DNA of 62,271 bases from a virus. Its lineage: Duplodnaviria > Caudoviricetes. Under the pieces are notes generated by a model that was given only the letters and a program-made list of their open reading frames with translations, searched no databases and was not told where the DNA came from. Shown here piece after piece: positions 22,559 to 62,271 of the stretch. Location: positions 1-62,271 of IMG/VR virus record IMGVR_UViG_3300050135_000024; one strand, given 5' to 3'. Made by a program: the position numbers and the translations under genes. Position 1 is the first letter of the stretch. The number at the start of each line of letters is the position of its first letter.

Positions 22559-23479
22559 GTGCCGACCGTCGGCGAAGGACTGATCGTCGGCGAGTTCACC
22601 GTCGGCGAGGAAGAAGCCAGCGAAGAACTTGCCGAATGGCAGTGGCTTTTTCGCGGCTACAAGTTCGGCCCGAAAACGTCGCTTGAGGTCAGGGAAATCG
22701 AGGGGCTCGATCTGCCGGTCGTGCGTTCTGGCGACAGTGGACGTCCGCGCGACCAGGGCATGTTCATCGGACTGGACGTGCTCGCCGGACGCGAAATCAC
22801 GATCGAGGGCGATCTGCAGCCGCCTTCCTCGAGCTTCCAGGCAGCGTGGGAAGCGCTCGCGACCGCGACGGTCCCGACGGGCACCGAACAGTACCCTCTG
22901 CAAGTGCACCTACCGGGCTACGGGGTGCTGACGTGCAACGCGAGGGTCCGTAAGCGCCAGATCCCGGTCGACATCCAGTTCACGCTCGGCAAGCTCGCTA
23001 AGGTCACGCTGCTGTTCGCCGCGGCGGACCCGAGGTGGTATGGGGCGACACAGGAGGTGTCGGTCAAACCGCCCCTGTCGGTTGGCGGCTTCACGTGGCC
23101 GCTGAAATGGCCGCTGAAATGGGGAGGGGGCGGCTACACGGGCGCGCTGTCAGTCACGAACGCAGGGAACTTCGAGACGCGGCCGGTTCTGACGATCGAA
23201 GGGCCGTGCGTGAACCCGTCGATCCAGAACGCCACGGCACCAGGCGGCCCGACGCTCGCGTTCAACCTTACGCTCGGCGCCGGCGAAAGGCTCGTGATCA
23301 ACACCGACATGCACATCGCGACCCTCTACTCGTCGCCGACAACTCCTGGGTCGGCAAGGACGGGAACTCTCATCGCTGGGTCGAGGTGGTGGACGCTCGA
23401 ACCAGGCACCAGCACGATTCAGTTCCTCGCCAGCGAAGGCGCGTTGTCAGTTGAATACGCGAGCGCGTGGATTATCTGA
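22559..23479 (+). CDS. Distal tail protein (Dit)
   Basis: AADPRWYG, FTWPLKWPL, NAGNFETRP..GPC.NP and WWTLEPG. Confidence 0.8.
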   Translation: MPTVGEGLIVGEFTVGEEEASEELAEWQWLFRGYKFGPKTSLEVREIEGLDLPVVRSGDSGRPRDQGMFIGLDVLAGREITIEGDLQPPSSSFQAAWEALATATVPTGTEQYPLQVHLPGYGVLTCNARVRKRQIPVDIQFTLGKLAKVTLLFAAADPRWYGATQEVSVKPPLSVGGFTWPLKWPLKWGGGGYTGALSVTNAGNFETRPVLTIEGPCVNPSIQNATAPGGPTLAFNLTLGAGERLVINTDMHIATLYSSPTTPGSARTGTLIAGSRWWTLEPGTSTIQFLASEGALSVEYASAWII

Positions 23480-24750
23480 TGGCTGGCAACCCCTTTGGCT
23501 ACCTTGCCTATGACCTGCTGACGGGCCGGTTCCTCGACTGGCTCCCGCTCCGCGGCGTGACCTTCGGCCAGCAGTTGAACACGCCCGGCACGCTCTCGGG
23601 CACGCTCGACCTCCGCGACCCGCGAATCCAGGCAGCCGAACCGCTCTCCTCCACAGTCCCGAACCGGACGCTGGTCGTCGTCGACTACCTGGAGTCGGTG
23701 CAGTGGGGCGGCATCGTGCTGCCCCGCAAATGGAAAGTCGAATCGTCGCCTCAGTCCACCAGCGGGCCGCTCGAAGTGTCCTGCTCGGAGGGTTGGGCGT
23801 ACTTCCAGAACCGCGTCCAGGCGACCGACTACTCGAGCCCGCCGTACTCGGGCATCACCGGGGCGAGCCCGATGGCCTACTGGACGCAGACGCCGTGGGA
23901 TGCGTCGTTGATCGCCTGCCAGATCATCGCGGATGCGATCGGCTACTCCGACGGTGCGCTGCAGCCATACGGAGATCTCCTGGGTGGCCTGGAGCTGAAG
24001 CTGAACGGAAAGACGCCGGCCGGCTCCGAACCAGCGGCAGCAGAAGGCGACTACATCGCGGTGAGCTACCCGTTTACGTCGATGCAGACCGTCGACACGA
24101 TCGTCAGCCAGCTCGCGCAACTCGGGCTCGGTGTCGGGTTCGACTTCGGACTGGACATCGCCTACAGCGAAGGACCCGGCTCGCCACCCGTCGGGGCGAT
24201 CAACATCAGCTACCCAAGACGCGGCAGGACATTCGCTGAAAACGGGCTGATGCTCGATGTCACGACCGCGCGCGGCTACGAATTTCCGGAGGACGGCACA
24301 CAGACCGCCAACCAGATCTACGAGCTGGGGGGGTCCGGTGCGATCAACGTGTCAGAGAACGTCGTCCCGCTCGAACAGGGCTACCCACTCTGGGAGCGCG
24401 TGATCTCACGCGCGAACATCCAGTCGCAGAACATCGAGGGGCTGCTCGAACAGATTGGCTTCTCCGACCTCGCGATCTACAGCTACCCGCCCGTCACGGC
24501 CACCGTCACGATCGGCGTGAACGACGCCAACTTGCCCCTAGGGTCCTTCACCGTCGGCGACGACGTAAGGGTCGTGATCCCGGAAACGGCACCGTCCGGC
24601 GAAGTGTTTGACCCGCGTTTCGTTGGGGGACTGGATCGGGAGTTGCGCATCATCGCCTGGAGCTGCGAAGTGGCTGACAGCGGCGACGCGACAGTCAAGT
24701 TGACCCTAGGGCGCCCACCGCTGCTTCAAGCACTGAACCCTGTGATCTGA
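23479..24750 (+). CDS. Minor tail/baseplate hub protein
   Basis: DLLTG..LP, LNTPG, WGGI, YPRRGR and GDDV motifs typical of actinophage hub proteins. Confidence 0.75.
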   Translation: MAGNPFGYLAYDLLTGRFLDWLPLRGVTFGQQLNTPGTLSGTLDLRDPRIQAAEPLSSTVPNRTLVVVDYLESVQWGGIVLPRKWKVESSPQSTSGPLEVSCSEGWAYFQNRVQATDYSSPPYSGITGASPMAYWTQTPWDASLIACQIIADAIGYSDGALQPYGDLLGGLELKLNGKTPAGSEPAAAEGDYIAVSYPFTSMQTVDTIVSQLAQLGLGVGFDFGLDIAYSEGPGSPPVGAINISYPRRGRTFAENGLMLDVTTARGYEFPEDGTQTANQIYELGGSGAINVSENVVPLEQGYPLWERVISRANIQSQNIEGLLEQIGFSDLAIYSYPPVTATVTIGVNDANLPLGSFTVGDDVRVVIPETAPSGEVFDPRFVGGLDRELRIIAWSCEVADSGDATVKLTLGRPPLLQALNPVI

Positions 24751-25163
24751 TGCCCGGCTACGCAGAACCCGCAAATGGCTGGCTCGCCCAAAAGCTCTCC
24801 CAGCTCGGCGAAGATATCGCAATCCTGAAGGCGCTGAGCGCGGGAGGACGCGACTGGGCCGAACCAACGCTGCTGAACTCCTGGGCGAACCAGGGGGGAG
24901 GGCGGCTCACGGTCGCCTACCGTCGTCAGGCGAACGTGGTGCGGCTTCGCGGTTCGCTGTTCGGTGGTGCGAGCGCGTCGGCCGCGTTTGTGCTGCCGGA
25001 AGGGTTCAGGCCAACTGCAGACGCGTTCGCCTCAAGCGGCGGCTACACCACTCAGGTGTCTCCTACAGGCGTCGTGGTAAAAGCGACCGGAGAAGTGGTC
25101 TTGTACTTCGATTCATCAGCCACACAGGCAGCGATCGATGGCGTGACTTTTACCATCGACTAA
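24750..25163 (+). CDS. Minor tail protein (fibre C-terminal-like domain)
   Basis: LLNSW.N, YRR..VV.LRG and LPEGFRP. Confidence 0.7.
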   Translation: MPGYAEPANGWLAQKLSQLGEDIAILKALSAGGRDWAEPTLLNSWANQGGGRLTVAYRRQANVVRLRGSLFGGASASAAFVLPEGFRPTADAFASSGGYTTQVSPTGVVVKATGEVVLYFDSSATQAAIDGVTFTID

Positions 25164-25170
25164 GGTATCA

Positions 25171-25198
25171 ACGCGCGATAATGCATGTTATTGCTACC
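25171..25198 (+). other. dif-like Xer site A
   Basis: acgcgcgATAA-tgcatg-TTATtgctacc (11-6-11). Confidence 0.5.
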
Positions 25199-25266
25199 AG
25201 ATTCGTGCCCTAATATCACACGGGCGCTAAGCGTGTCGGCTGACGTTGGACGGGGGAGGAGATTCG

Positions 25267-25470
25267 ATGGCCATCGAACGCGTCTTCCACTGCGACGCCG
25301 AGGACTGCACCACCCACGTCGGCTCTCTGCATGCCGAGCCAGAGTGCCCCGGCTGGCTGCTCGTAACCGAAACAGGGCACAAGCCCGTGAAGCACCACTT
25401 CTGCTGCTGGGACTGCGCCATGAAGTACGCAGCGAAGTTCCCGCCGCCTACCGTGATTCCGTGCGAATAG
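25267..25470 (+). CDS. Small Cys/His zinc-binding protein
   Basis: CD..DC ... HFCCWDC; GGAGGAG RBS. Confidence 0.6.
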   Translation: MAIERVFHCDAEDCTTHVGSLHAEPECPGWLLVTETGHKPVKHHFCCWDCAMKYAAKFPPPTVIPCE

Positions 25471-25695
25471 GCGTCTCGGGCGTCATGGTCTGCCGGGTCG
25501 TCGCACAGACTGCCACGGCCGCCCGTTCCGACGGATAGTCCTTGCTCCAGAACAGCAGCTTGCTGTTCTCGTCGTAGAGGCGAGCGTGGTAGCCATGCTC
25601 GGTTTTCACGATCAGGAAGTACATCGCAGAGCAGTCTCGAACATGGCGCCGCGCCCTGGCTAGCCGCGTCTACGACGGACGGGAGGTGATGACCT

Positions 25696-26796
25696 ATCGC
25701 GGTAGAAGTTTTTGGTTTGCAAGATAACTCTGCCGGCGAAAGCGCGGAGCGAACAAGAAGGGCGATCAACTTCATGCTAAAGCGCGGAGCCACGATCGGC
25801 TCCGTGGCCGGGGGCTTGGTCGCCGCCACCGACTTGCAGACCACGTACCAGGGCGCCGGGCTGAAAGTGGAAATCGCCGCCGGGGAGGCGATCGTCCCTA
25901 ACAATGTCTCGGCTAGCGGCACGGGCTACTACCTCAGACTCTCCGCGACGTCTACGGTCACGCTGCCAGCCGCAAACTCGTCCAATGCCCGTGTGGAAGC
26001 GGTAGCCGCCTACATTAAGGACGAATCGTACTCCGGGTCGGGCAACGAAGGGCTCGTCGAAGTCCTAGCCGGAAACGCCAAAGCCGGCGCGACGCTTGGG
26101 AATCTCGAAGGGGCACCCGGCCAGTCGGGCGGACCAGCGCTCCCCAAAAACGTGCTCGTGCTCGCATACATCCTCGTCCCGGCAGCCGCCACAACCATCA
26201 GCAACGCGGACATCAAGAACGTGGCGGAACGCGCGAACCTCGGCCTGTCGGCGGGGCTGAACATGGTGGACACCTCCTCGGGAAGGGAAATCCTCAACGG
26301 AGAATTCACGGAGGTCTCCGCAGCAGTCACAATGACGGTCACGCCCAGCGTGAACCTCTACTGCGGCGCCATCAACCGATCCGGTGGCACGGTCACGATC
26401 AAAGCCAACTCGGGGAGCATCTACGGCGACTTCCTGAATGGCGTCTCAGAATTCAAGCTCGCGACCAACCAGCATGTGCTGCTGCTCTCCGAAGGCGCCA
26501 ACCTGTACATCATCGCCGGGGAACCCAAGCGCGAATTCAACGAGGTGGCCAGTGGGCGGACGATAGGCGAAGCGCACGAACCGAGCGCGACGCGACCCAC
26601 GTTCGTGACTGGATACGTCACGGTCGCTGCCGGCAAAACCGCCGAAGTGAAAGTGGGCGAAGAACGGCTGTGGGGCAAACTTGCAAACAACAGCGCTATC
26701 GAAGAGACGTTTACGGTGGGCTTCTGGATAGGCGCTGGAGAGACCTACAAGATCACGGAAGCGACGCTTGCGTGGCTCACCTACCAGATTTGGTAG
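25696..26796 (+). CDS. Minor tail protein (probable ATC start)
   Basis: V.IAAG.A.V, A.SSNAR.E, P.LP.N..VLA.I.V N-terminal fibre domain; GGAGGTG before ATC. Confidence 0.7.
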   Translation: MAVEVFGLQDNSAGESAERTRRAINFMLKRGATIGSVAGGLVAATDLQTTYQGAGLKVEIAAGEAIVPNNVSASGTGYYLRLSATSTVTLPAANSSNARVEAVAAYIKDESYSGSGNEGLVEVLAGNAKAGATLGNLEGAPGQSGGPALPKNVLVLAYILVPAAATTISNADIKNVAERANLGLSAGLNMVDTSSGREILNGEFTEVSAAVTMTVTPSVNLYCGAINRSGGTVTIKANSGSIYGDFLNGVSEFKLATNQHVLLLSEGANLYIIAGEPKREFNEVASGRTIGEAHEPSATRPTFVTGYVTVAAGKTAEVKVGEERLWGKLANNSAIEETFTVGFWIGAGETYKITEATLAWLTYQIW

Positions 26797-26850
26797 TGGC
26801 CCCGGTAGGCGACCAGCGCGCCCGTCGGCATGCGGCACACGCCGGCCGCT

Positions 26851-27366
26851 TTAGTAGAAGGCTTCGCAGCGCGGCGGATTGATCGCGTTCCATAGGCTCA
26901 TCTCGGATGGTGGACCCGTCTGTGTCTCGGACATGCCAAGGAGGTTGCCGTACTCGCGCACCATGTCGCTACAGAATTCGACAAACCATTGATCCTCGGC
27001 GACTTCCGACGGCCAGCGCTTCGAGTTGAAGGTGATCATGCAGTCGGCGAAGGTGCTGGATGGCGGCGCCTTGCTGTTGGGGCCATCCGGTGACTGCCAG
27101 GAGGACCAGGATTCGGCGTGGATCGGGCGCCCATAGTAGGCCAGGTAGCTCGCTTCCATCGCTGATGTCTCGGGGGCGTAGGTGATCGTGATAGCGCCAC
27201 CGCATGGGGTGGCCTGCCAGTAGCGGGAAGCGATGCGCTGAGCGAGCGCCACCGGGTAGTCCTGCACGACTTGCGTCACCGGGTCTGTGGCCGTGTGTGC
27301 CCCTGCTGTAGCTGGTGAGAGCGCGAGCGAGACGAGAAAAACAACGAGCGAGACCCTATTCCGCAT
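26851..27366 (-). CDS. Secreted protein with a degenerate zincin motif
   Basis: Signal peptide ending AGA-H; REYGNLLG where HExGHxLG is expected. Confidence 0.55.
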   Translation of the reverse strand: MRNRVSLVVFLVSLALSPATAGAHTATDPVTQVVQDYPVALAQRIASRYWQATPCGGAITITYAPETSAMEASYLAYYGRPIHAESWSSWQSPDGPNSKAPPSSTFADCMITFNSKRWPSEVAEDQWFVEFCSDMVREYGNLLGMSETQTGPPSEMSLWNAINPPRCEAFY

Positions 27367-27574
27367 CGGGGCGCCTCACGATGATCAGAGCCCAGTTGCG
27401 ACGAAACGGCCAGCCGAACTGAAAGTCAACGTTGCTCGTGATGCTGATGATCGCGTCAGCCGGGTATGGGTCGAGTGTCGTGCAAATGCGTATTGCTAGC
27501 GTCTCTTTGGTCCAGGCCTTGAGCACGAAAGCTGCGTATTGACGGCGCGCACGCTTCGGTTTGGCTCGGCTCAT
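27356..27574 (-). CDS. Hypothetical protein
   Basis: Coupled to neighbouring genes. Confidence 0.4.
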   Translation of the reverse strand: MSRAKPKRARRQYAAFVLKAWTKETLAIRICTTLDPYPADAIISITSNVDFQFGWPFRRNWALIIVRRPDAE

Positions 27575-27981
27575 TCCGATGCCTCGATCGCGCGTTCGCT
27601 GCTGATCATCGATTCGATCTCGTGTTCGTCCGCGGTGGAGGGGTTTTCACCATTCAGCTTTTCCATCTCGCATCGGCTTTCGCGGATCTCGGCGAGATTT
27701 GTTGATGCACTGGCCGGAAGGTCGTTGCAATCGGTGGACGCGGTGGTGGAGGTTGGTTCCGTTGGCGTTGGCGTTGGGGCAGTTACCGTGTGGGTGTGCA
27801 CGACTACATGGGTAACGGTCCGGGTCGGCGATGATGCGGCGCGGGCGCGTACCGTCGTGACGCCGCCTGCGATAGTGACCGTTGACGCGCGAGACGTCGT
27901 GGAATGGCCGATGGCTACGCCGACGAGAGTCCCCAGCGCGAGAGCGGCAACGGCGACGAGTGCTACTACCAGCTTGTTCAT
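27571..27981 (-). CDS. Membrane-anchored Thr-rich protein
   Basis: N-terminal hydrophobic helix, T/P-rich linker; AAAGGA RBS. Confidence 0.6.
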   Translation of the reverse strand: MNKLVVALVAVAALALGTLVGVAIGHSTTSRASTVTIAGGVTTVRARAASSPTRTVTHVVVHTHTVTAPTPTPTEPTSTTASTDCNDLPASASTNLAEIRESRCEMEKLNGENPSTADEHEIESMISSERAIEASE

Positions 27982-28529
27982 CTGAGAGTCCTTTCCTTTT
28001 CGATCAACAGGAGGCATCTATGTCACTCGGGAACGTCGGCGTGAAAGAAGCGGACGTGCCCGCAGTTGGGGCAGATGGCGGCGTAGAGAGGCATCCCGAC
28101 CGGCTGCTTCTGACCGGGCTTGGTCACGACGGAGAGGAAGTACGTGTCCTCGGCGACCGTCCGTTGAACATCGAGACCGCACGCCTCGCACCGCGCGAGG
28201 AACTCCTTCGCGTCGAGCTTCGCTTTGGTCCCTTCCGGCTGCGTGTCCGCGCCAGGATCCTTGCGGACCCGGTCAGCCGGCATCTCGGCTGGCCGGAGCG
28301 GGGGTTGCTCTGAGTCCTCACCCGACACGGCTGAGAGCCTTCGCGGTTGCGCGCACAACTATCGCGCGGGTTGGAACAGGGGCGTAGACTCGTCTGCGCA
28401 TCGGGAGCTCGTATCTCCTGGTGTAAGCCCCCGGTGACGTCTGTGGCGAAGCCGGGGGCGCTGTGTGGGCGCGTAGTTTAGACGAAGGTGTCGAACAATC
28501 GTCTTTACACGAATTGCTGGGCGACGCGA

Positions 28530-28557
28530 AGTCGTCATAAGGTTTGTTATCGAGCGT
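28530..28557 (-). other. dif-like Xer site C
   Basis: acgctcgATAA-caaacc-TTATgacgact; left arm 10/11 identical to sites A and B. Confidence 0.6.
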
Positions 28558-28641
28558 CGCCGCCGAGATGTCGAAAACGACGGCTGACGGGCAGCGGCAC
28601 CCGCGTCTAGCGTTGCGAGACAGCAACCAGAAAGAAACGCC

Positions 28642-28815
28642 ATGCCTGCAACTGCGCCGTTCCACACCAGCGAGGACGAGGACCATCCGGTCTACCACGA
28701 CAACTCCGCTTGCGCGTTTGGCAAGGAGATCATCGCGAACGATCATCGGGTCGCTGGCGATGACGACCGGGATCGGTGCAAAGAGTGCGCGCGTCTGCAC
28801 CGTCAGGGGCGTTAG
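28642..28815 (+). CDS. Small Cys/His protein (57 aa, not in ORF track)
   Basis: MPATAPFHT..VYHDNSAC..G......RCKEC. Confidence 0.6.
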   Translation: MPATAPFHTSEDEDHPVYHDNSACAFGKEIIANDHRVAGDDDRDRCKECARLHRQGR

Positions 28816-29338
28816 CCTCCCGCCAACGCAAGAACTCTTCGCGGTCACGAACCTCCTGGGCATTCCATGCCTCACGTAGCTCGGCGAGCCGGCGAGGATG
28901 GAAGACGATCGACCACGTTGGATGGTCTTCGGGACAGCCGTCCTCGATACGCCAGCTGCGCGTGATCTCCATCACGGGCATTCCGTAGTCGTTCGCTACG
29001 TCCAGAGCCTTCCAAGGCTGGCGGCCGATATCCACCGTGGGGTAGGGATAGGCGTGGCCGTCCCCTCCCTGGCACGACTGGCGCGTTTCGATCCCGTGCT
29101 CCATAAAAAGCCGCACGACATGAGCGATCCCCGGATCGATGCGTTCGCCTCGGAAATGCTCCAGCGCCCAGGCGTAGTCGCTCTGGAGGTCCAGGTTGGG
29201 TCCCTCGCGCCAGCCCGGCTCCCTTGGCGTCTCGGCATCTTCGAGGGCATGCAGCTGCTCGCGCGGCAGACTCATCGCGTCCAGCCACCACTCGGGCACA
29301 TCATCGCGAGTGCGACGATGCTCTCCGTCGCCGCTCAT
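28730..29338 (-). CDS. Hypothetical protein
   Basis: IDPGI...V......GIET.QSCQGG.GH motif seen in phage proteins. Confidence 0.55.
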   Translation of the reverse strand: MSGDGEHRRTRDDVPEWWLDAMSLPREQLHALEDAETPREPGWREGPNLDLQSDYAWALEHFRGERIDPGIAHVVRLFMEHGIETRQSCQGGDGHAYPYPTVDIGRQPWKALDVANDYGMPVMEITRSWRIEDGCPEDHPTWSIVFHPRRLAELREAWNAQEVRDREEFLRWREANAPDGADARTLCTDPGRHRQRPDDRSR

Positions 29339-29402
29339 GCTTCCGCCACTAGGCTTATGTCAACGGGCCACGGAAATAGCCTGCAAATACGCGCTTTCTG
29401 CA

Positions 29403-29430
29403 ACGCGCGATAATGCATGTTATGGCAGCG
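29403..29430 (+). other. dif-like Xer site B
   Basis: acgcgcgATAA-tgcatg-TTATggcagcg; shares a 23-bp exact repeat with site A. Confidence 0.55.
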
Positions 29431-29514
29431 ATGAGCCCCGCGAAGCAGTCCCCGGGCGCCCTTGGACGGGGCCTTGTGCCTAACGCCAGACGACTGCTTC
29501 GCGGGGCTCATCGC
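29428..29514. repeat. Perfect 23-bp inverted repeat with 41-nt loop
   Basis: gcgatgagccccgcgaagcagtc / gactgcttcgcggggctcatcgc. Confidence 0.85.
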
Positions 29515-29723
29515 CCTGGGCTGACGCGATAGCGAACCGAGTGTTCGCGCTTGGCCCGAGTGAGCTGTCCTTGTGCGACGAGTTCGGCGAGCTTGCGGTG
29601 GACGATGTTGGGGCTCACGCCTGGCATCTGCCGGCAGATCTGTCGCGCGGTCGGCCAGTCGCCGCCGGGTTCGCGTGCGGCGGCCTCAACAGCGTCGAGG
29701 ACGGCTTGATCTTGGACGGTCAT
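29508..29723 (-). CDS. Winged-HTH protein
   Basis: PTARQIC...VSPNIVHRKLAELV.QG.L. Confidence 0.6.
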   Translation of the reverse strand: MTVQDQAVLDAVEAAAREPGGDWPTARQICRQMPGVSPNIVHRKLAELVAQGQLTRAKREHSVRYRVSPGR

Positions 29724-30442
29724 CGCCCAGCCCCGAACAGCTCGGGTGCCATGCGCCGCAGGAGATCCTCGGGCGCCTCGACGTGCTGCAGGACGCCCTC
29801 GGCGCCGCAGAATGGGCACCAGCCGCTCTCGGGGAGGGGGTCGTGGTCGTAACCCCAAGCGCGAGGCTCAGCCGGTACGCCCCACGCTCCGGTCTTGCAG
29901 TGCGGGCATTCGTAGCTGAGCATCGTGCGGTCGCCGCCGTTTGGCGCGCACCGCGCTGGCGCATCGGACGGGGCGCGGAAGATGCCGCGCGAGACGTAGA
30001 GCGCCCGTCGCGCGGCGAGGTCGTCGCCGAGGGCAAGCTGGTCGTCTACCCAGCTCATCGAGGCACCGTGATGGGCTGGAGGGCGGCTCGGATCTCGTGC
30101 AGCTCCAGGGCGATTGAGGCCAACGCGAGCGGCGTGACGAGATGCGCGGCGATGTAGGCCAGCTTCTTTTCGTCGGCGTCGGCGTACTGCTCGATCGCCC
30201 GTATGAGTCTGGCGTGTACGTCGTCCTGTGCCGTCATGGCGTCTGCTTGGGTGGTTGTGGGCCGCTCTTGACGATCGCGCTGGTGACGGGCGCAGCGTTC
30301 GCCAGCGCCTGCGCTTCACAAAGACGGTCTGCGCCGTTCCGGTCGCGTACTGGTAGGTGGGCGTGGATGAGGGCGACGCAGCCGTACAGGGCGCCCGCGG
30401 CGCCAAGCACGCCGGCACATAGCGCCACGACGGCAAGGGTGC

Positions 30443-31192
30443 TCACGATGCGACCTCCCCCTCTGGCTCCGTTGTAGCTGCGAGCGCAGCACGGGCTTGG
30501 TCGATGAGCTTCGTGAGCGAGATTGTCTGTCGGGTGGACCGCGCCTCGGGCATATCCAATGCGACGACGAACTCTGCGAACTGCCTCAGCTTGGCCTGCT
30601 GGCGCTCCAACTGGATCTGTTCTCGCTCGGCCCGTTCGGCTCGCTGCATCTGCTTGGTGAGGTCGCGGTCGATGACGCGGTAGGAGTCGAGCCGTTCAGC
30701 GGCCAGGGCCTCGGCTGCGTGTGCTCGCTGCTCCATGTCTGCCGCTGCCTCGATCGCGGCGACCTTCCGATCCTCGGCGTATTCGGCGCGGGCGACCTGA
30801 GTGCAGAAGTCAGGCCATGCCAATAGTCGGCTTGGCCAGTGGGGCACCTCGCCCGCGAGGTTGTACATCTGGATCTTCTCATGCTCTTGCGGATCTGCGG
30901 CCTGCTGCTCGACATGACGCTGCTCGACGGCCTGCGCATCCCGGCTGCGAATACTCCGTAGATGGCAATCAAGGTCACTCGGGAAGGTCCATCGGCCACC
31001 GCAAGCGCACGTCAGATCGCCAGTCGCTTCATGCTCAACGTCTCTCGAGCGCTCGTAGGCGATAGCGGCACGCCACATATGCAGGTAAGGCGTACCCGAC
31101 CGAACGTAGTCAGAGGGCAGAATCGCCAGCGCATTCTTGAGCGCAGACTCCATCGCGTCGCGTTCTACCGGCGATAGCTCCCGGTCAGGCAT
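30443..31192 (-). CDS. Hypothetical coiled-coil protein
   Basis: Part of the coupled leftward operon 29508-33435. Confidence 0.5.
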   Translation of the reverse strand: MPDRELSPVERDAMESALKNALAILPSDYVRSGTPYLHMWRAAIAYERSRDVEHEATGDLTCACGGRWTFPSDLDCHLRSIRSRDAQAVEQRHVEQQAADPQEHEKIQMYNLAGEVPHWPSRLLAWPDFCTQVARAEYAEDRKVAAIEAAADMEQRAHAAEALAAERLDSYRVIDRDLTKQMQRAERAEREQIQLERQQAKLRQFAEFVVALDMPEARSTRQTISLTKLIDQARAALAATTEPEGEVAS

Positions 31193-31829: not shown

Positions 31830-32474
31830 TCATGGCCGAGGCACATGGGTTTCTCCTTCAGGTCGTGGAGCGGGCAAGGTTGGGTGCGGCGGCGGACCGA
31901 GCGGGTCAAGCCTGCGGAGGCCGTCGCGCCGGCCGGATGCGAGCGCGGCGATCTGGCGGCTGTCGGTGGCGTCGACCATCGAGTCCCAGGCGTCGTGTAG
32001 CTCGTGAACGCGGGCTGGCCCCCACTCGTCGTCGAGCGCGCCAGCGAGCCGCTCCCAGCCCTGGACGGCCACGAACCGCTGCACGGTGGGATGCGTATGC
32101 GCGAGGGCGGCCTGACGAGCATTGTCGCGCAGCGCGCGGTCGCTCACGTCGCTGAGAAACGTGGTCCCGGCCGCCGCGAAGTGCTGGCGCCGCGCGTCGG
32201 CGTAGCCGGGCGCGGTCAGCGCGCGGCGGATGAGCAGCCACGCCTCGTCCCACGTCGGCGCTGAGGGGTCCTGTCGCGCTGCATGCTGGAGCTCGCCAGC
32301 GGAGGGCGGGAACTTCGACTCAGACGACCGCATCGCCTGGATCGCGCCGTCGGGCGTAATGCCGTGCGCCTGCAGCTCGGCGACGTAGGCGGCGATCGCC
32401 TCACGCCCCCAGCCGGCGACCTGCGACGGCCATGAGCCGAGCAGCACCTGCCCCACGTCCATCCAGTCGCTCAC
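31830..32474 (-). CDS. Putative helicase loader/inhibitor-like replication protein
   Basis: KFPPS.GEL...P.WDEAW pattern; follows the initiator gene. Confidence 0.5.
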   Translation of the reverse strand: MSDWMDVGQVLLGSWPSQVAGWGREAIAAYVAELQAHGITPDGAIQAMRSSESKFPPSAGELQHAARQDPSAPTWDEAWLLIRRALTAPGYADARRQHFAAAGTTFLSDVSDRALRDNARQAALAHTHPTVQRFVAVQGWERLAGALDDEWGPARVHELHDAWDSMVDATDSRQIAALASGRRDGLRRLDPLGPPPHPTLPAPRPEGETHVPRP

Positions 32475-33322
32475 GCCGAAAACCCCATTGCTCGCAGCAG
32501 GTCCGATGGCGACTCACGCCGTGCGGCCGCAGCGGGCCTGCCGATGAAGCTCTCCAGCTTGGTCGCGTTGCGGCAGATTAGCTCGATGTCGTCGAAGCGC
32601 TTGCCGGCCTCGTTTACGAATGCGCCTCTTGCCGCACCGTCGATCGCTTCCTGGATCTGCGGCGCCGTGAAGCCTTCGCGCAGCCGACCCTCGATCTTGC
32701 CGCGCCGCTCGGGGCTCAGCTTCGCCTGGGGGTGCCCACATTGCTCTTGCCAGTAGGCGAACAGCTCGCGGACGCCAGTAGTGCTAGCCGTCTTCTCTCG
32801 GGCACGTGGCAAACGCCACTCTGAGACGGCCGGAAACCCTTCGCGGCGGTCCTCGACGCCGAGCCGCACGCGCGCCCGCTGTAGCGTCCGTACGGCGATG
32901 TTCTCGGCCTTCGCTCGTGCCTTGATCTTCCCGCTCGCCACCCATTCGCCGTCGGCGAGCTCACCAGAGAGCCATTGGGCCGCAATGCCACAGTTGTGCC
33001 CAGTTGTGCCCAGTTGTGCCACAGTTGTGCCAGCGGTTGTGCCACTCCCCTGAACCCTCGTGGTGTCCCTCATCGCCTTTCTCGCGTTCTCCGTAATCGC
33101 TCTACTCACTGCTCCACGCTTCCGACTCTTAATGGCGCGTCGCGGTTGAGCCTGACGCTCCGACGATCGCCGCGTCGGGCTCAACTTCGCATTGACCGCT
33201 GAGAACTTCATCGGGAACTCGACAGCTTTCCGCAACCAGCGGTTTCGTCTCGACTCCACTCTTCCGGGCCAGGAACGGCAGCATCCGAGCGAGCGATCGC
33301 CTCGTCTCGCTCTGCCACCCAC
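32471..33322 (-). CDS. Putative replication initiator (start uncertain)
   Basis: C-terminal LFAYW...R..KI..RL.EG.T..QI..AID domain typical of phage initiators; internal iteron-like repeats. Confidence 0.6.
   Translation of the reverse strand: MGGRARRGDRSLGCCRSWPGRVESRRNRWLRKAVEFPMKFSAVNAKLSPTRRSSERQAQPRRAIKSRKRGAVSRAITENARKAMRDTTRVQGSGTTAGTTVAQLGTTGHNCGIAAQWLSGELADGEWVASGKIKARAKAENIAVRTLQRARVRLGVEDRREGFPAVSEWRLPRAREKTASTTGVRELFAYWQEQCGHPQAKLSPERRGKIEGRLREGFTAPQIQEAIDGAARGAFVNEAGKRFDDIELICRNATKLESFIGRPAAAARRESPSDLLRAMGFSA
32991..33043. repeat. Iteron-like tandem repeats (CAGTTGTGCC x4 plus a variant), candidate origin
   Basis: Copies at 32991, 33001, 33011 and 33022, and a variant at 33034. 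Confidence 0.7.
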
Positions 33323-40756: not shown

Positions 40757-40853
40757 GCGCTCGTAGCTCAGTGGTTAACCGTAACCTTCGGGGTGCGGGA
40801 AGAGCAGCGGTCTTTCAAGCCGCAGGTCGCGTGTTCGATTCACGTCGGGCGCA
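40757..40853 (+). tRNA. tRNA-Glu(UUC) with D-loop hairpin insertion
   Basis: Acceptor GCGCTCG/CGGGCGC, D-stem GCTC/GAGC, anticodon arm GCGGT-CTTTCAA-GCCGC, T-arm GCGTG-TTCGATT-CACGT; TAGGAT upstream. Confidence 0.8.
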
Positions 40854-41241: not shown

Positions 41242-42066
41242 TCAGGAGCACGCGGGCGTAAGATCCCGGCTGACCCTCTCCGGTCCCTCATGAGCGCCCC
41301 GCATTGGCCCCCTCGGGGCTGAGGCGGGGCGTTCGGTCGTAGAATCCTTGCTCCGGGTCTCGCTGCCCGAGAAGCAACAGCGAGTGGTGGCCTTGGCTGG
41401 AGCCGCGTCTGACTTCGGTCGGGCGCGGCTCTTTGTCGTTCTGGGGACGGAAGGGGCCGGAGTCGAACCGGCTCGCCCGTGTGGACTCAGCGGCTTAGCA
41501 AGCCGCCCGCTGACCGTTCGCTTCCCTTCCCTATCGTCGGTCCTGCCCCAACCACCGGGCGCGTCTAACCGGGACGCCGGGCTGCTCGCGTTCGGCGATG
41601 CGCTCAGCGCGTGTGAGGAATTCGCTCCGAGGAATGTCTTGGGCTTCGGCGGCTCGTGCTTGGCCCGCACTTTAGATGCGAGCCGGTCGGCATCGATCGT
41701 AATACGGCTGTGAACCCAGATCACCTGCCAGCTCTGGTGAACGCGCAGCCGAGCGCGCATCGAGGCGCGGCACTGGCTCGCGCGGTCCTCCGACGCCGGG
41801 TCCCAATCGCCCTCCCAGAAGCGCGCGACCGCCTGGCAGTCCGTGGCGAACGTCGCCACGTTCATCCCGCGCTCATGGGCCAGCTCCATCGCCCACAGAA
41901 CCGCCTCGAACTCTGCGATCACGTTTGTGGGCGTCTGTGCGTAGCGCCCCTCCGGCCCGATAGCCCCCGTCACCGCGAGCCCCGCGCGACCGGCGCGAAA
42001 GGACGCGTCAGTCACGACGCTCGCAAAGGAGGCCAATGCTGGCTCATCGCGATCGACGGGACGCAA
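41242..42066 (-). CDS. RNase HI-like protein (domain ~42020-41660; ORF runs on through the tRNA)
   Basis: TDAS, TN.IAEFEAV, TDC and ADRLA match RNase H catalytic D/E/D/D. Confidence 0.7.
   Translation of the reverse strand: MRPVDRDEPALASFASVVTDASFRAGRAGLAVTGAIGPEGRYAQTPTNVIAEFEAVLWAMELAHERGMNVATFATDCQAVARFWEGDWDPASEDRASQCRASMRARLRVHQSWQVIWVHSRITIDADRLASKVRAKHEPPKPKTFLGANSSHALSASPNASSPASRLDAPGGWGRTDDREGKRTVSGRLAKPLSPHGRAGSTPAPSVPRTTKSRARPKSDAAPAKATTRCCFSGSETRSKDSTTERPASAPRGPMRGAHEGPERVSRDLTPACS
41400..41440. terminator. Hairpin between convergent RNA units
   Basis: gagccgcgtctgac-ttcg-gtcgggcgcggctc followed by tttgtcgtt. Confidence 0.6.
41448..41530 (-). tRNA. tRNA-Ser(GCU)
   Basis: GGAAGGG/CCCTTCC acceptor, GCGGC-TTGCTAA-GCCGC, long variable arm, GCCGG-TTCGACT-CCGGC, G discriminator; weak D-arm. 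Confidence 0.75.
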
Positions 42067-49802: not shown

Positions 49803-50394
49803 GCGCGCACCGGGTTGTGATCGAGTTCGATGATGGCGTGCGGGCCAAGCTCGTCTGCCCAGAGTCGGGCTGCATGCCAGCGCAGAACTGCGCTCAATGC
49901 GGCCGGGACCTACGACCGCGTGACGAGGCCGAGCAGCAGGCGGAAGGCATCGAGCCTTGCTACGACTGCAAGGACGCCGAGTCATGGCGAGACGAGTGCT
50001 GGATCAAGACGTGGTTCGACAACATCGACGCCACAGAACTGCTCGCCGGGAAGGTGACGGTCGAGATCGACGCCGAGTGGGACCTAGACCACATGGTCGC
50101 ACACATCATCGAAACGGAGCCATCGGCCGGAGAGGCAGGCACGGGCGTGAGCGCGGACCGCACCCTGACGGGCGTGATCGCCGAGCGGCAACGTGAGCGC
50201 AACCGCCTACATCGGCTCGCCGGAGCACTGCGCCGCGTGCTTGACGACCAGCGCGCAGAGACGGGCGTGGACGAGTGGGACGAGTCGGACTTCCGCTGCT
50301 ACGCCTACAACGCCGCCGAAGCAGTGCTGGAGCGCGGCATCCACGGCGACGCGCGCCTCGATGAGTGCCTTGACCAGGCAGACCCGGAGGCCCT

Positions 50395-50754
50395 ATGACC
50401 CCCGTCTCCCCCTCCCACAAAGCCGGCGACGGCGTCTTCGAGTACCTGGCCGAGCGCCCTTCCATCGGGCTCACGCCTACGGAGTTGGCATACGCACTCA
50501 AGCGGCCCGTAGAGGAGATCGAGACCGACGTGGCGCAGCTTCTCGTTGACGGCCGGCTAAACGCCGGCTACGGCCACTACAGCGCGCGTCCCTGCGGACA
50601 GGAGTCGCCCGCGCCGGTCGAGGTCCACTACGGCATCTGTCGTCTGCCTGTCGGGCATCGTGGCCCCTGCGAGTGGACGCCTGCTCACACACGAAGCGAG
50701 CCCGGTATGACTGTCGGCTCCCCCTCCCACGAAGCCCACAGGAGGCTGATATGA
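50395..50754 (+). CDS. Hypothetical protein (cassette 1, wHTH-like plus Cys/His)
   Basis: Starts with repeat-encoded SPSHKA and ends with SPSHEA. Confidence 0.5.
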   Translation: MTPVSPSHKAGDGVFEYLAERPSIGLTPTELAYALKRPVEEIETDVAQLLVDGRLNAGYGHYSARPCGQESPAPVEVHYGICRLPVGHRGPCEWTPAHTRSEPGMTVGSPSHEAHRRLI

Positions 50755-50999
50755 AGATCATCGTCCAGCATGGCGGGTACGGGTGCGACACGGGCTGTTG
50801 CGGGCACTGGGTAGAGTGCGACGACCCCGAGCAGCAGCCGCCGAGAACACGGGGTGGCTTCACTTTCGAGCACGCCTCCCATGACGGCGAGACTCCTCAG
50901 CAGTTCGCGGAACGGCTCGTGCGCGAAACCTTCGGCGATGAGCATGTAGCTGACCTTGACTGGGAGAACTGCCAAGTCGTCGAGGATTGTGATTGGTGA
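50751..50999 (+). CDS. Hypothetical protein (cassette 2)
   Basis: YGCDTGCCGH motif; AGGAGG RBS. Confidence 0.65.
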   Translation: MKIIVQHGGYGCDTGCCGHWVECDDPEQQPPRTRGGFTFEHASHDGETPQQFAERLVRETFGDEHVADLDWENCQVVEDCDW

Positions 51000-51035
51000 T
51001 GCGGGGCTCCCCCTCCCACGAAGCCAAGGCGGCCG

Positions 51036-51362
51036 ATGCTTAGCGGTCTCGACAGGGAGATCGTCGGCGTGAACGTCGCGGGATGCGACGCGCTCTGCTT
51101 GCCGTGCGCGGCGAAGCGACTGGGCGAACCTCGCTGCGCACGAGTGATCGCGGGGCTTGAGGATCGCCGGCACCTTGAATGGGGTGCGCCCGAACCGATC
51201 AACCGATACAACGCCGAAGACTGGGCGCAGGACAATGCCGAGGAATGCAACTGCGAGCGTGAAGTGCCGCTCGGCGAGGTCTGCGAGAACTGCTGGATGC
51301 TGTGCTGTCCCGACTGCGGCAAGCGCCTCGACGAGCCGCCGAAGGCCGAGGCTGCGACATGA
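51036..51362 (+). CDS. Cys-rich hypothetical protein (cassette 3)
   Basis: Multiple CxxC. Confidence 0.6.
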   Translation: MLSGLDREIVGVNVAGCDALCLPCAAKRLGEPRCARVIAGLEDRRHLEWGAPEPINRYNAEDWAQDNAEECNCEREVPLGEVCENCWMLCCPDCGKRLDEPPKAEAAT

Positions 51363-51396
51363 CCGGCTCCCCCTCCCACGAAGCCGGCGAGGCGAC

Positions 51397-51630
51397 GTGA
51401 TGGTCGTCTATGCGATCGGCACGCGCTTGCGTCATCACGCTGGCAGCCTGTGGGAAGTCACAGGACACAACGAGCTCACGGGCGACTATGGGATCAAATG
51501 CCTGATCGGGACGGTGCGAGAGGGCCTGATCGGTGGCGAGGTCGCGGGCTCCGTGCGCTCGGGCATCCACGCCGACTACCTGCACGGCGACGGCTGGCGA
51601 GTCGAGATGGCCGATGAGGTGGACTGGTAA
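51397..51630 (+). CDS. Hypothetical protein (cassette 4)
   Basis: Coupled ORF between repeats. Confidence 0.6.
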   Translation: MMVVYAIGTRLRHHAGSLWEVTGHNELTGDYGIKCLIGTVREGLIGGEVAGSVRSGIHADYLHGDGWRVEMADEVDW

Positions 51631-51667
51631 TGGGCGTCTCCCCCTCCCACGAAGCCAAGGCGGGCGA

Positions 51668-57596: not shown

Positions 57597-58157
57597 GTGA
57601 GACTCGCGTACGCTGATCCGCCCTACCTCGGCTGCTGTGGCCTGTACGGCCACGATCACCGTGAGGATTGGGGATGCTGGGACTTCGCGGTGAGCCACGC
57701 GAAGCTGATTGAGCACCTAACGATCCGCTACCCGGATGGCTGGGCGCTAAGCGCCAGCTCCCCTTCGCTGAGGACGCTTCTGCCGCTTTGCCCCGAGGAT
57801 GTGCGTGTCGCTGCGTGGGTCAAGCCGTTCTGTGCGTTCAAGCGTGGCGTGCGCCCCTGCTATGCATGGGAGCCAGTGAGCTTCCGCGGCGGCCGCAACC
57901 CCCCCGGCACGCCCCACGCGCCCCCAGAGAAGAACGGCGCGCAGACAACGCCCAAGGACTTCATCGCCGAGTCGATCACGCTACAGAAGGGGCTGACGGG
58001 CGCTAAGCCCCTGAAGGTCTGTCGCTGGATTCTCGAACTACTCGGCTACCAAGAGGACGACCAGCTGGTGGACCTATTCCCTGGCACTGGAGCAATGGAC
58101 GATGCGTTGGCTCGGCCTCCCCTGTTCGACACCCTGGAGCCAGTGACGTGGCGCTAA
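57597..58157 (+). CDS. Compact DNA adenine methyltransferase-like protein
   Basis: YADPPY, WVK, WEP, GAKP and DLFPGTG. Confidence 0.75.
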   Translation: MRLAYADPPYLGCCGLYGHDHREDWGCWDFAVSHAKLIEHLTIRYPDGWALSASSPSLRTLLPLCPEDVRVAAWVKPFCAFKRGVRPCYAWEPVSFRGGRNPPGTPHAPPEKNGAQTTPKDFIAESITLQKGLTGAKPLKVCRWILELLGYQEDDQLVDLFPGTGAMDDALARPPLFDTLEPVTWR

Positions 58158-59308
58158 GCGGCTTCGCGATCAATGGCACGGGCTTCTTCTCCCCACCGTT
58201 GACGATCGCTGGCCCCGTCCGGGCCGATTGCTCGAGCGAGGACCACGCGGGCAGCGTTTACGTCACGGTCTGCTCGGTAGCCGCATGCGCACTCATGTAC
58301 GCGCTGCTCGAGCGTCTTGGCCGCGATCGTGCCGCACTCCGCGCACGTCCTGCTCGTGTTCCTTGCATCGACCGGGATCACCTGGCGGCCAGCATCTTCC
58401 GCTTTGTCCGCCAGGTACGTGAGGAACTGTCCCCACCCCTGATCGTTCACGTCTCGTGCGAGGGCGCTCCGGGCGAGCCCACGCACATTCAAGTTCTCGA
58501 CCGCGATCACGTCGAAGCGCTCGACCAGCTGCCGGCTCAGCTTGTGCGCGTGGTCGCGACGCACATTGCGCTCGTGTTCACGGTGGCGGCCGAGCAGCGT
58601 CGCCGCCTTGCGCCTGCCGTGAGAGCCGCGCTGACGCCGGGCGACCCTGCGCGCGGCGCGTCTGACCTTCGCGGCTGCGGCGCGCTGCGCCCGCGGCCCG
58701 GCGATCAGCTCGCCAGTCGAGAGGGCCGCGAAGGTGGAGACGCCAAGATCGAGCCCGACGCTCTCGCCCGTCGCCGGCAGCGGCCGGGGTGCCACGCCGT
58801 CGAGCGCGATCGACGCGAACCATCGGCCGTTGCGGCGTGTCACCTGCGCGGTGCAGAGCTTCGCGCCAGCGGGGAGCGCCCGGTGCATCTTGAGCTTGAC
58901 GTGCCCGACGGCCTGCAAGCGCAGCCGGCCCGCGTCCGTGACCGCAGCGCCATTACCGATCGCCCACTCCAGCGTGTCGAACCGCTGACGACTGCGGAAC
59001 CTCGGATAGCCCGGCTTCTCGCCCGCCTTGCATCGACGGTAGAACGCCTGCATCGCTCGATCGAGACGGCGCAGCGTGGCCCGCTGCGAGTTGAAGCTGA
59101 CCTCGGGGTCGAGGATTCCCTCAGCACGGAGCGTCTTGAGCTCGGCATCCTGGTCATAGAGGCTGACCGACCGGCCCTGCTCGTGCCACGCGTCGCGGCG
59201 ATGCTGGAGCGCCGCGTTGTACAGGTCGCACGCTTCGCCGAGCTGCTGCTCGAGCGCCTGTGCCTGCCTGCGCGTCGGATACAGGCGATATCGGTAGGTG
59301 CGGCGCAC
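58154..59308 (-). CDS. tnpB: TnpB RNA-guided endonuclease (IS200/IS605 family, no tnpA)
   Basis: YRYRLYPT, GYPRFR, RuvC D-E-D (GLDLG, AVENL, DRDVNAA) and CxxC zinc finger; right end GTCAC at 58147-58143. Confidence 0.92.
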   Translation of the reverse strand: MRRTYRYRLYPTRRQAQALEQQLGEACDLYNAALQHRRDAWHEQGRSVSLYDQDAELKTLRAEGILDPEVSFNSQRATLRRLDRAMQAFYRRCKAGEKPGYPRFRSRQRFDTLEWAIGNGAAVTDAGRLRLQAVGHVKLKMHRALPAGAKLCTAQVTRRNGRWFASIALDGVAPRPLPATGESVGLDLGVSTFAALSTGELIAGPRAQRAAAAKVRRAARRVARRQRGSHGRRKAATLLGRHREHERNVRRDHAHKLSRQLVERFDVIAVENLNVRGLARSALARDVNDQGWGQFLTYLADKAEDAGRQVIPVDARNTSRTCAECGTIAAKTLEQRVHECACGYRADRDVNAARVVLARAIGPDGASDRQRWGEEARAIDREAA

Positions 59309-59578
59309 CCGCGCATCGTCTACAACGCGCCGGACATCACCGCGACCCTGGAGTCAGCGTGACCCCGCAACTGCGCGCCGCTCTCGATGATCCGAAGGTG
59401 GCGGCGGCAAAGGCGGCTCTGGATGAGGCTGAGCGAGCCGAGCATGCCATGTTGGAGATCGCAGCAGCAGCAGAACGCGCCTGGAAGGAGGCGGTTGCTC
59501 GCCGGGAGGCCCGTTTCTGGGCCTACGCAAAGGCGCTCGAACGCTATCGGGAGCGAGCGTGACCCCGGCGGACAAAAC

Positions 59579-59920
59579 ATGATCTTCAAGCCCGAGCTTG
59601 CAGCGAAGGTGATGGCTGGCGAGAAGACGGTCACGCGTCGCCTGTGCTCGGACAACCCGCGCTCGCCGTGGTGGCATGAGCGGTGCATCTACGTGCCGGG
59701 CCAAGAGTTCTCGGTACAGCCGGGGCGTGGCAAGCCGCGCGTCGGCACCGCGTGCGTCGTCCTGTGCTCGAGAATGATGCTCGGCGAAATGTGGAGCGCA
59801 GAGGCCAAGCGAGAGGGCTTCACGAGCGTCTCGGCATTCATCGCCGCATGGTCGGAGATCAACGGCTGCTTTGATGTCTTCGCGCGGGTCTGGCGCGTCG
59901 AGTTCGAGGTGCTCCGGTGA
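59579..59920 (+). CDS. ASCH-domain protein
   Basis: F.......V..G.KT.TRR, QPGRG, A..EGF and VW.VEF. Confidence 0.8.
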   Translation: MIFKPELAAKVMAGEKTVTRRLCSDNPRSPWWHERCIYVPGQEFSVQPGRGKPRVGTACVVLCSRMMLGEMWSAEAKREGFTSVSAFIAAWSEINGCFDVFARVWRVEFEVLR

Positions 59921-60102
59921 GCCGAGACGACCTCAAGCTGGCGGCCGACCTGATTGGCAACCTGCTCTGGCTGGCCATCGCTATCGCCCTGATCGTGCTA
60001 CTTGCCACTGGCGATCTGACCGTCACGGCGCACTTCCGTTGACGCGAGCCGCGTAACCCCCGTTGCTGGTCCATTAGTTTTGGGGGGCCTGCGAACCCGG
60101 CG

Positions 60103-60807
60103 CTAATCGCCCCAGTCGATCGCCCTCATCTCGGCGGCGAGTTCGGGGTCGTTGACGTGAAGGTAGATGCTGGTGGTCTCGATCGAGGCGTGTCCCATGA
60201 GCTGCTGGAGCTTGAGGATCGAGACGCCGTGGCCCAGGCAGTCGGTCGCAAAAGTGTGGCGCAGCGTGTGCGGGTGCGCCTTCTTTGTGTCGATGCCGGC
60301 CTTGAGCATCCGCCGTCGAATGCTCTTATAGGTCGAGTCGGTGGTGACGCCGAGGTTCGGCAGCTCGCCGTGGCGGCTACATGCGCCACGACGGATTGAG
60401 ATGAACAGCGGCGCGTCGTCCTTGCGGGTGCGCGAGTAGCGCCCGCGCATCTGAAGCCAGCGGGTCAGCAGATCGAGCGTCGCAGCGTCGGCGTAGACGG
60501 TGCGCTCCTTCTTGCCCTTCCCGGTCACGCGAATATTGCCCGTCTCCCAATCGACGTCGCCGAGCCGGACACCGCACGCCTCGTGGATACGCAACCCACA
60601 GCGATACATCAGCTGCATGATGCAGCGGTCGCGGAAGCCTGTCGGCACTCGCATGTTGGGCGTGCTCATCAGCTTCTTGACCTCTGCGGCGGTGAGCACG
60701 CCCGGCAGCCGCCGCCCCTTGCGCGGGCCTCGGTGCGCGGTGCGACTGAGTGCGGTTTTGCTCGCAGGCACGGGCGCCTCTTTCCGGGCTGGCAGGGAGT
60801 GCGACAA
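60103..60807 (-). CDS. Tyrosine recombinase (catalytic domain only, Xer/Fim-like)
   Basis: GLR..E, GKG.K.R, HPHTLRH, GH and Y; lacks core-binding and arm-binding domains. Confidence 0.9.
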
Positions 60808-61519: not shown

Positions 61520-62271
61520 CCGACCACGACACCCCACAGACCGCACGAGGAGGCCGACCGTGGCTAGCGAGGACCGGGAGTGCGCATTTCGATCGCCTCG
61601 GGATGGCGGCACGATCGAGGACAGGCCCTCGAGTGCACCGTGCGAGTTCGCTGGCCATGAATGGCGAGACGCTGGCGGTGGCCTCGAGATCTGTGTGCTG
61701 TGCGAGGCCGAACGTTGGGCTGCGGAGGCCCGTGATGGCTAGCGTGGACCGGGAGCGATTCTGCAGCTGCGGCGGCTACTGGCAGGTGTTCGAGAACGGG
61801 ACGTTTTGTAAAACGTGCGACAAGAGAAGGATCACGCCGCTCTATCTGACGGATCAGCCGGGCGGCAAGCGCGCTGTTGAGCATGGCTGCACCTGCCCGG
61901 TCGAGCAACCCGAGGCGATGTCTAACCGCTTCACCGCCGACAAAGAATGCCCGCTACACGGCCTGCACATTACCAAGGCGACGATCGAGAGTGCGTCATG
62001 ACTGAGGACCGGGAGCTATCGCCAGCAGAACAAGAGGCGCTGGAACGCTCAGCTGGTGCGCGGATTGGACGATGGGAGCACTCGGAAGCTCGTGAGTTGA
62101 AAATCTGGCGTGACGCTATCGCCTACGCCGAGCAGCAACAAGGTGGCGACGTGGTGTTGATCGCTCGGTGTCCCGAGCACGGTCTGCACGGACAGCGCAC
62201 CACCTGCTTCGAGTGCGGTGGACTGGTCGACCAAGTGCCGTTCACGGCCGCCGAGCAGCGTCATGTCGAGC

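Follow-up and report, generated by a model that had tools for sequence, protein, structure and literature searches.

Copies of the host dif site bracket a tail-fibre and accessory gene cassette in a tailed soil-actinobacterial phage that probably uses the host XerC/XerD recombinases

The stretch of DNA analysed here, referred to as the window throughout, is the whole of a single virus record (IMGVR_UViG_3300050135_000024; 62,271 bp, about 65% G+C). It comes from a tailed phage of soil actinobacteria, which probably uses the XerC and XerD recombinases of its host by means of two copies of the host's own dif site, named A and B, that lie in direct orientation around a tail-fibre-like gene and a set of accessory genes. 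A third dif-like site, C, and a lone half site are located in the same region. The likeness of these sites to dif is far beyond chance, and from it we infer Xer-dependent integration of the phage, or excision of the bracketed cassette. The sites and the linker that joins the half site to B are as follows, with arm and spacer matches counted against the host dif described below.

25171 to 25198, plus strand: site A, dif mimic, after a minor tail gene; XerC arm ACGCGCGATAA (10/11), spacer TGCATG (6/6), XerD arm TTATTGCTACC (7/10)
28530 to 28557, minus strand: site C, dif-like; XerC arm ACGCTCGATAA (11/11), spacer CAAACC (1/6), XerD arm TTATGACGACT (8/10)
29355 to 29364, plus strand: lone XerD-arm half site TTATGTCAAC, equal to one of the two host XerD-arm variants and 38 bp upstream of B's XerC arm
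29365 to 29402, plus strand: the 38-bp linker from the half site to B, containing CCTGCAAA and kept in three phages
29403 to 29430, plus strand: site B, dif mimic, intergenic; XerC arm (10/11), spacer (6/6), XerD arm TTATGGCAGCG (8/10); both flanks kept in two relatives

A preliminary description of this DNA had placed and oriented all four elements correctly, and the exact 23-bp repeat that it reported between A and B is borne out: the 23-mer CAACGCGCGATAATGCATGTTAT occurs at 25169-25191 and 29401-29423, both on the plus strand, and at up to three mismatches the window holds these two matches only, as against none in 100 shuffles. The two copies are direct repeats 4,232 bp apart. All three sites fit an 11-6-11 layout with an inner ATAA/TTAT palindrome and are the only ones in the genome to do so; the pattern ATAA-N6-TTAT occurs three times in the 62 kb (25178, 28537 and 29410), where 0.02 occurrences are expected, and the exact left arm ACGCKCGATAA is limited to A, B and, on the minus strand, C. 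Each of the three sites lies between likely genes. Site C and the half site are inversely oriented, as had been proposed, but their reading as a pair of sites is not supported, as the half site has no XerC arm on the right side. The sequence TTATGTCAAC has its single occurrence at 29355-29364, and its match is not significant genome-wide when taken by itself, since a match with at most one mismatch turns up in 35 of 100 shuffles and its score of 14.5 on a XerD-arm matrix compares with a mean best of 13.5 in shuffles; what gives the half site its weight is its position and its conservation.

The host counterpart of these sites was sought by an exact-match scan with the 19-mer ACGCKCGATAATGCATGTT over one genome per prokaryote species. 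The scan returned 69 stretches from 66 assemblies, three of which contribute two stretches each. All but one of the stretches (68/69, from 65 assemblies) belong to Solirubrobacterales, labelled as Solirubrobacteraceae, as Conexibacteraceae in two cases, or at the level of the order, and the last comes from a Clostridia contig, where the remainder of the site is missing. The core is present about once per host genome, in flanks that are unrelated between species. Leaving aside the Clostridia match and one junction from an IMEX (a mobile element that integrates by exploiting Xer), 67 host sites remain, and at the positions that the query leaves free these read A, T and G (67/67 each), T (66/67), A or C, A (58), A (65) and C (49). 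The resulting host element, ACGCTCGATAA-TGCATG-TTATGT(A/C)AAC, has the canonical dif layout. In all five complete host chromosomes it is single-copy and located 44-48% of the chromosome length away from dnaA (the dnaA match in one of them, G002, consists of split pieces below the curated cut-off), and all five encode at least two full-length paralogues of Xer-type recombinases. From these findings together, with the position opposite dnaA as validation, we take it as proven that the element is the dif of this family.

To the left of the host dif, conservation is weak and mainly amounts to CA at positions -2 and -1. B's own left flank ranks in the top 1-3% of random 16-mers when compared with this dif flank, which we do not count as evidence. 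A separate observation concerns the motif CAAACTGACCCACTACC, often preceded by GAGACGCCGCA, which lies just left of dif in about ten host species (loci L006, L007, L008, L014, L022, L039, L040, L046, L061 and L067); it could be the end of a widespread element inserted at dif, or a conserved feature of the terminus.

When rated by a weight matrix derived from the 67 host dif sites, A reaches 31.4 bits, B 27.3 and C 8.9, while the next best place in the window scores -8.3 and the best in 20 shuffles -7.0. In the XerC arm, A and B depart from the host only at position 5, where G replaces T; one of the 67 host sites also has G there. Over the six A and B sites of the three phages that carry them (see below), the XerC arm matches at 10-11 of 11 positions, the spacer at 6 of 6 and the XerD arm at 7-8 of 10; at positions 5-10 of the XerD arm, 3-5 of the 6 residues match, against a random mean of 1.7. 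The XerC/XerD dif architecture recognised in the preliminary description is thereby strongly supported, and the comparison with the host dif that it had proposed came out positive, with A and B as copies of the Solirubrobacteraceae dif and the half site as the XerD arm of the host. In our view, it is established that the sites are dif mimics and are under selection.

The arrangement is common to the window and two further IMG/VR phages, G409 (locus L004; 53 kb, 75% complete, with a minor tail protein 86% identical to that of the window) and G408 (locus L003; 56,659 bp with terminal repeats, 100% complete). Each of the two records contains exactly two dif-core sites in direct orientation, spaced 3,731 bp apart in G409 and 2,985 bp in G408. 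Across the three phages, the DNA flanking the sites is 70-90% identical or cannot be aligned, yet both sites are letter-perfect over 21 bp. In all three, exactly 38 bp separate the XerD half site from B's XerC arm downstream of it. The half site reads TTATGTCAAC in two of the phages and CTATGTAAAC in G409, mirroring the A/C polymorphism of the host arm. Among 20 IMG/VR relative loci, 18 of which are more distant (27-62% identity), direct repeats with an ATAA-N6-TTAT or AT core are found only in L004 (1/20). A collection of named phages gave no match to the region (megablast, blastn) or to the tape-measure protein (tblastn).

As to the enzyme that would act on the sites, the preliminary description had named either the host Xer proteins or the following phage gene.

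60103 to 60807, minus strand: short Xer-family tyrosine recombinase, catalytic domain only, adjoining a TnpB gene and without counterpart in the relatives

The first of these is the better candidate. No N-terminal domain is encoded upstream of the window recombinase, and no PF00589 protein is found in G408 (complete) or in G409 (75% complete). A small serine recombinase of the resolvase type, without linkage to TnpB, is present in G408, and none was found in the 75% of G409 that is represented. As the window enzyme is not conserved in the relatives, it is unlikely, judged from the three genomes, to be a shared driver; the three phages share no recombinase, so that the sole recombination system they would have in common is that of the host. 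The identity of the window enzyme to host Xer paralogues, 34-37%, also rules out that it is a recent capture of a host Xer gene. The TnpB gene (IS605 OrfB/Cas12f-like) and the short Xer recombinase together occupy 58154-60807, and neither occurs in the relatives.

Xer-dependent elements do occupy the dif of this host family. In one assembly (G001; L076, G001:C27, 3584-10670), two direct copies of the core are present in dif, 7,059 bp apart; the XerD arm of the left copy is degenerate (3/10) and that of the right copy is proper, and the 7.06-kb element between them, which carries genes of the Zot family and for a single-stranded-DNA-binding protein, is by its sequence an inovirus-like IMEX. A second assembly (G185; L081, G185:C4) contains a 2.67-kb element of the same layout, again with a degenerate left XerD arm, in a dif with a different spacer. 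We read both as classical Xer-dependent, filamentous-type elements that exploit the host dif. Their open reading frames (ORFs) share nothing with those of the phage in blastp at E below 1e-3. Prophage relatives of the phage itself occur in two of 401 genomes of the family (G182 and G185), with a minor tail protein that is 44-48% identical, and IMG/VR lists relatives as proviruses; judged by these sequences, the wider phage group is temperate.

The genes between and around the sites are listed below.

23467 to 24750 and 24750 to 25163, plus strand: two genes for minor tail proteins (427 aa and 137 aa) on the left side of A
25192 to 29400, no strand: the cassette bracketed by A and B, with nine ORFs
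25267 to 25470, plus strand: Cys-rich ORF in the cassette
25448 to 25624, minus strand: ORF in the cassette
25717 to 26796, plus strand: tail-fibre-like or virion-structural gene (phrog_3398, E 3e-10)
26851 to 27366, minus strand: secreted protein of 171 aa with a signal-peptide-like N-terminus, read from the translation
27356 to 27574, minus strand: ORF in the cassette
27571 to 28017, minus strand: membrane protein gene, read from the translation
28023 to 28358, minus strand: zinc-ribbon-like ORF in the cassette
28469 to 29355, no strand: piece of about 0.9 kb found only in the window, holding C and two ORFs, its right end abutting the half site; the relatives have about 100 unrelated bp there
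28642 to 28815, plus strand: ORF in the cassette
28730 to 29338, minus strand: ORF in the cassette
29428 to 29514, no strand: long hairpin directly right of B (19-bp stem plus extension, -46 kcal/mol)
29508 to 29858, minus strand: small gene of winged-helix type to the hairpin's right, kept beside B in the relatives (79-90% amino-acid identity)

The cassette is mosaic yet homologous in the three phages; in each, leftward genes that encode secreted or membrane proteins come after a tail-fibre-like gene. Plus-strand structural genes end at 26796, leftward genes run from 26851 to about 35.5 kb, and a gene for a GH25-type endolysin begins at 35720. The codon score of the tail-fibre-like gene, 0.47 bits per codon, is on a par with that of the tail genes, and the leftward cassette genes score poorly in the same codon model. 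The 171-aa secreted protein has chromosomal homologues of 32-39% identity in 24 of the 401 Solirubrobacteraceae genomes, none of them near dif, and looks from these matches like a host-derived moron. Most cassette ORFs and ten small ORFs of the leftward block are without a match in Pfam, PHROGs or NCBIfam. All three phages keep the hairpin, and 2 of its 27 pairs are compensatory. It shares 3 nt with B's XerD arm, overlaps the stop codon of the leftward winged-helix gene as well, and is probably the terminator of the leftward operon. At the sites themselves, an Rfam scan (which returned a tRNA only) and a terminator scan gave nothing, and a consensus promoter scan of 24500-30500 gave a single site, at 28718, where 1.1 are expected, and left A, B and C without one. 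Of the approximately 55 ORFs scanned, none was recognised as a repressor, excisionase, partition or XafT-like gene; a weak match to replication initiators lies at 32471-33322.

Weighing these findings, we lean by a small measure towards a reading in which A and B, and more weakly C, would as mimics of the host dif be substrates of host XerC/XerD, with B as the most likely phage attachment site (attP) and the cassette between A and B as excisable. The assignment to the host enzymes draws on established Xer biology and on the lack of a recombinase shared by the phages. XerC would bind the near-perfect left arm and XerD, cooperatively, the weaker right arm; since the 6-bp spacer is identical to that of dif, strand exchange with dif would be possible. 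The attP of temperate siphoviruses commonly lies after the tail-fibre and moron genes and before a leftward operon. B has this attP-like position as well as conserved flanks, with the half site at 38 bp on one side and the hairpin on the other, and for these reasons it is the likeliest attachment site for Xer-dependent integration at dif, which would make the phage a tailed phage of the IMEX type. One of the two integration junctions would regenerate a working dif through B's good XerC arm. As A is in direct repeat with B, the 3-4.2 kb of tail-fibre and moron genes between them might also be excised by Xer as a circle, or swapped between co-resident genomes, although this excision or exchange of the cassette is a more speculative step than integration.

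Several observations weigh against this reading. Integration needs one site only and leaves the second direct copy unexplained, and a direct A/B pair would permit the loss of a tail-fibre-like gene that looks native. As mentioned above, repressor, excisionase and XafT-like genes were not recognised. The prophage relatives in G182 and G185 are located away from dif and carry no copy of the dif of their own host. In none of the 66 assemblies with the 19-mer does the phage lie beside dif, and no phage-dif junction was found; elsewhere in IMG/VR, the core occurs only in the two relatives, both free forms, and a metagenome scan with B's left flank returned G408 itself and a 2-kb near-copy, again free forms in both cases. 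The stretch from A through the cassette to B is intact in the Logan contigs from three runs on peat, and neither site shows a joint or a loose end; two of these runs may be the source samples. Of the features that mark an IMEX, the dif-like attP is present, and a copy integrated at dif, with dif on one side and a dif-like site on the other, was not found; the Xer-type shuffling or excision put forward in the preliminary description is left without an A-B deletion joint or a phage-dif junction in its favour. The absence of an integrated form is weak negative evidence from a rare clade, and the missing joint is weak as well, as Logan contigs drop rare variants. A tblastx comparison of the host dif loci with the window left two loci above a floor of 45 bits, neither of which touches the cassette, and in the host assemblies the 8-kb dif loci showed no homologue of the cassette.

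A bolder version of the same reading, which we consider unlikely as it stands, would have the lineage drop a conventional integrase and use host Xer twice, B serving lysogeny at dif and the A/B pair serving excision, delivery or swapping of the cassette, with the half site at 38 bp as a new accessory element that recruits XerD to the weak arm.

The second site may instead be the scar of a capture. In this explanation, an ancestor with a single dif-type attP would have been part of a tandem array at dif together with a small Xer-dependent element, and excision between the outer sites would have produced a two-site hybrid, with the VGJphi-CTXphi hybrids as a precedent; A, C and the half site would then be remnants of little present function. 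Co-excision of hybrids from dif arrays is documented for filamentous phages in the portion of the literature covered (PMC4246890), and small elements occupy the dif of this host family. The region of the window also looks the part, with pieces of dif at A, B, C and the half site, a lineage-specific piece of 0.9 kb that ends exactly at the half site, and leftward cassette genes that score poorly in the codon model, one of which has homologues in 24 of 401 host genomes. Relics should decay, and both sites are letter-perfect over 21 bp in three diverged phages; the tail-fibre-like gene has native codon usage and its normal place after the minor tail genes, and the 8-kb host dif loci showed no cassette homologue. 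The scars of repeated dif integration that had been suggested as an alternative stay a live rival, and we give the capture reading a low but real probability.

Multimer resolution in the manner of cer or psi is distinctly doubtful. It would require a circular plasmid prophage, the dimers of which are resolved by host XerCD or by the Xer-like enzyme of the window phage. Circular plasmid prophages commonly carry Xer-related recombinases that are thought to resolve dimers, according to the section of text consulted (PMC8026635), and the short Xer-family enzyme of the window, the small resolvase-type serine recombinase of G408, the weak replication-initiator-like match and the failure to find a lysogen at dif would all fit. 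Partition genes are lacking among the ORFs scanned, two direct sites would delete the cassette rather than aid resolution, and the wider group includes integrated prophages. Furthermore, the spacer and XerC arm copy the chromosomal dif, which integration needs and the resolution of sister plasmids does not. A cer or psi site is single on its plasmid replicon and has accessory sequences on the XerC side; the phages have two direct sites per genome and a conserved 48 bp with a XerD half site on B's XerC side. Highly improbable, finally, is the notion that a phage regulator uses the repeats as operators or promoters and that their resemblance to dif is incidental: the three sites are intergenic and upstream of genes, the GATAAT within them resembles a -10 hexamer and a winged-helix-like gene stands beside B, but 21-23 contiguous positions and XerD-arm residues shared with the host dif cannot be incidental (27-31 bits against a shuffle best of -7), the promoter scan gave nothing at A, B or C, and A and B have the same orientation while facing genes on opposite strands.

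If the phage does use host Xer at B, it would be closest, by analogy, to the classes of TLCphi and VGJphi as these are described (PMC4246890). Like the IMEX sites of these phages of Vibrio cholerae (PMC4246890; PMC6744903, PMC9226527; partial texts), each site of the window is a single double-stranded dif-like site of 28-29 bp; the available text further describes a XerC arm and centre near-identical to dif, a weaker XerD arm, the use of host recombinases and one junction that is expected to regenerate dif (PMC4246890). The differences lie in the carrier, here a 62-kb tailed double-stranded DNA phage of Actinomycetota with two direct sites, a third site and a XerD half site, and in the XerD arms, which at 7-8/10 are less degenerate than those of TLCphi in the portion seen (PMC4246890); in addition, no XafT-like gene was recognised in the window phage and its integrated form was not found. 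The double-jelly-roll tailless prophages and inoviruses of dif type in Vibrio are comparable in their double-stranded DNA and dif-like attP; they lack an integrase and form arrays at dif (PMC12715192, in the excerpts available). As characterised there, they are small, non-tailed, found integrated and equipped with terminal rstR/xafT genes, whereas the window phage is tailed and known from free genomes only, and the same excerpts contrast non-tailed IMEXs with tailed phages that encode an integrase (PMC12715192). Hybrids of VGJphi and CTXphi that arise by co-excision from dif arrays likewise place two parts split by Xer sites in one packaged genome (PMC4246890, partial text), but these join two recognisable elements, and the bracketed part of the window is without replication or assembly genes of its own and has a tail-fibre-like gene.

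The sites that bracket plasmid dif (pdif) modules are inverted, and such modules turn up again in differing plasmid contexts. The pdif modules of Acinetobacter plasmids resemble the cassette in that accessory genes lie between XerC/XerD-like sites on a mobile replicon, and movement by host Xer has been proposed for them in the sections consulted (PMC7399989, PMC5790767). The cassette differs from them in its direct repeats and in being always in the same phage context, as it is known only from three collinear related phages. Since A and B are direct repeats, both on the plus strand, the pdif analogy fits poorly, and the modules of pdif style that had been claimed for this region find no support in unrelated replicon contexts either.

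Hijacked chromosome-dimer resolution is a textbook trait of the filamentous phages of the cholera type. In the literature covered, Xer-dependent integration is described for filamentous and tailless double-jelly-roll phages, satellites, islands and plasmid modules, and we found none for tailed phages within a search that did not extend to supplements, which may list exceptions. If the reading given here is true, Xer-dependent lysogeny would reach the tailed phages, which are the dominant class of phages, and a family of uncultured soil actinobacteria for which dif is defined here. Screens for temperate phages that are based on integrases would miss such phages, and with a tail-fibre gene between two Xer sites, a host enzyme could move host-range genes. 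Comparison with the host dif also provides a cheap prediction of the host of these uncultured phages, namely Solirubrobacteraceae with this exact dif.

Further observations concern other parts of the window. An inverted repeat links 30907-31186 with 62007-62271 (84-96% complementary), and its right copy is cut off by the end of the window. In two runs, the contigs break within this repeat, at 31054-31166, where the depth is 3-4 times higher; the piece is repeated or may be invertible, which is probably the reason that the IMG/VR entry for the phage is given as linear and 94% complete. Five repeats of about 31 nt with the core GCTCCCCCTCCCACGAAGCC are spread over 50394-51656, 271-360 nt apart, at the starts of small plus-strand ORFs, and look like paralogous N-termini. 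The tRNA finders disagree, Rfam placing a tRNA at 40757-40853 (plus strand) and ARAGORN a tRNA-Ser (gct) at 41448-41531 (minus strand). Lastly, a 240-aa ORF at 42577-43299 matches the C-terminal half of transposases of the IS1182/IS5 family and is probably a transposase fragment.

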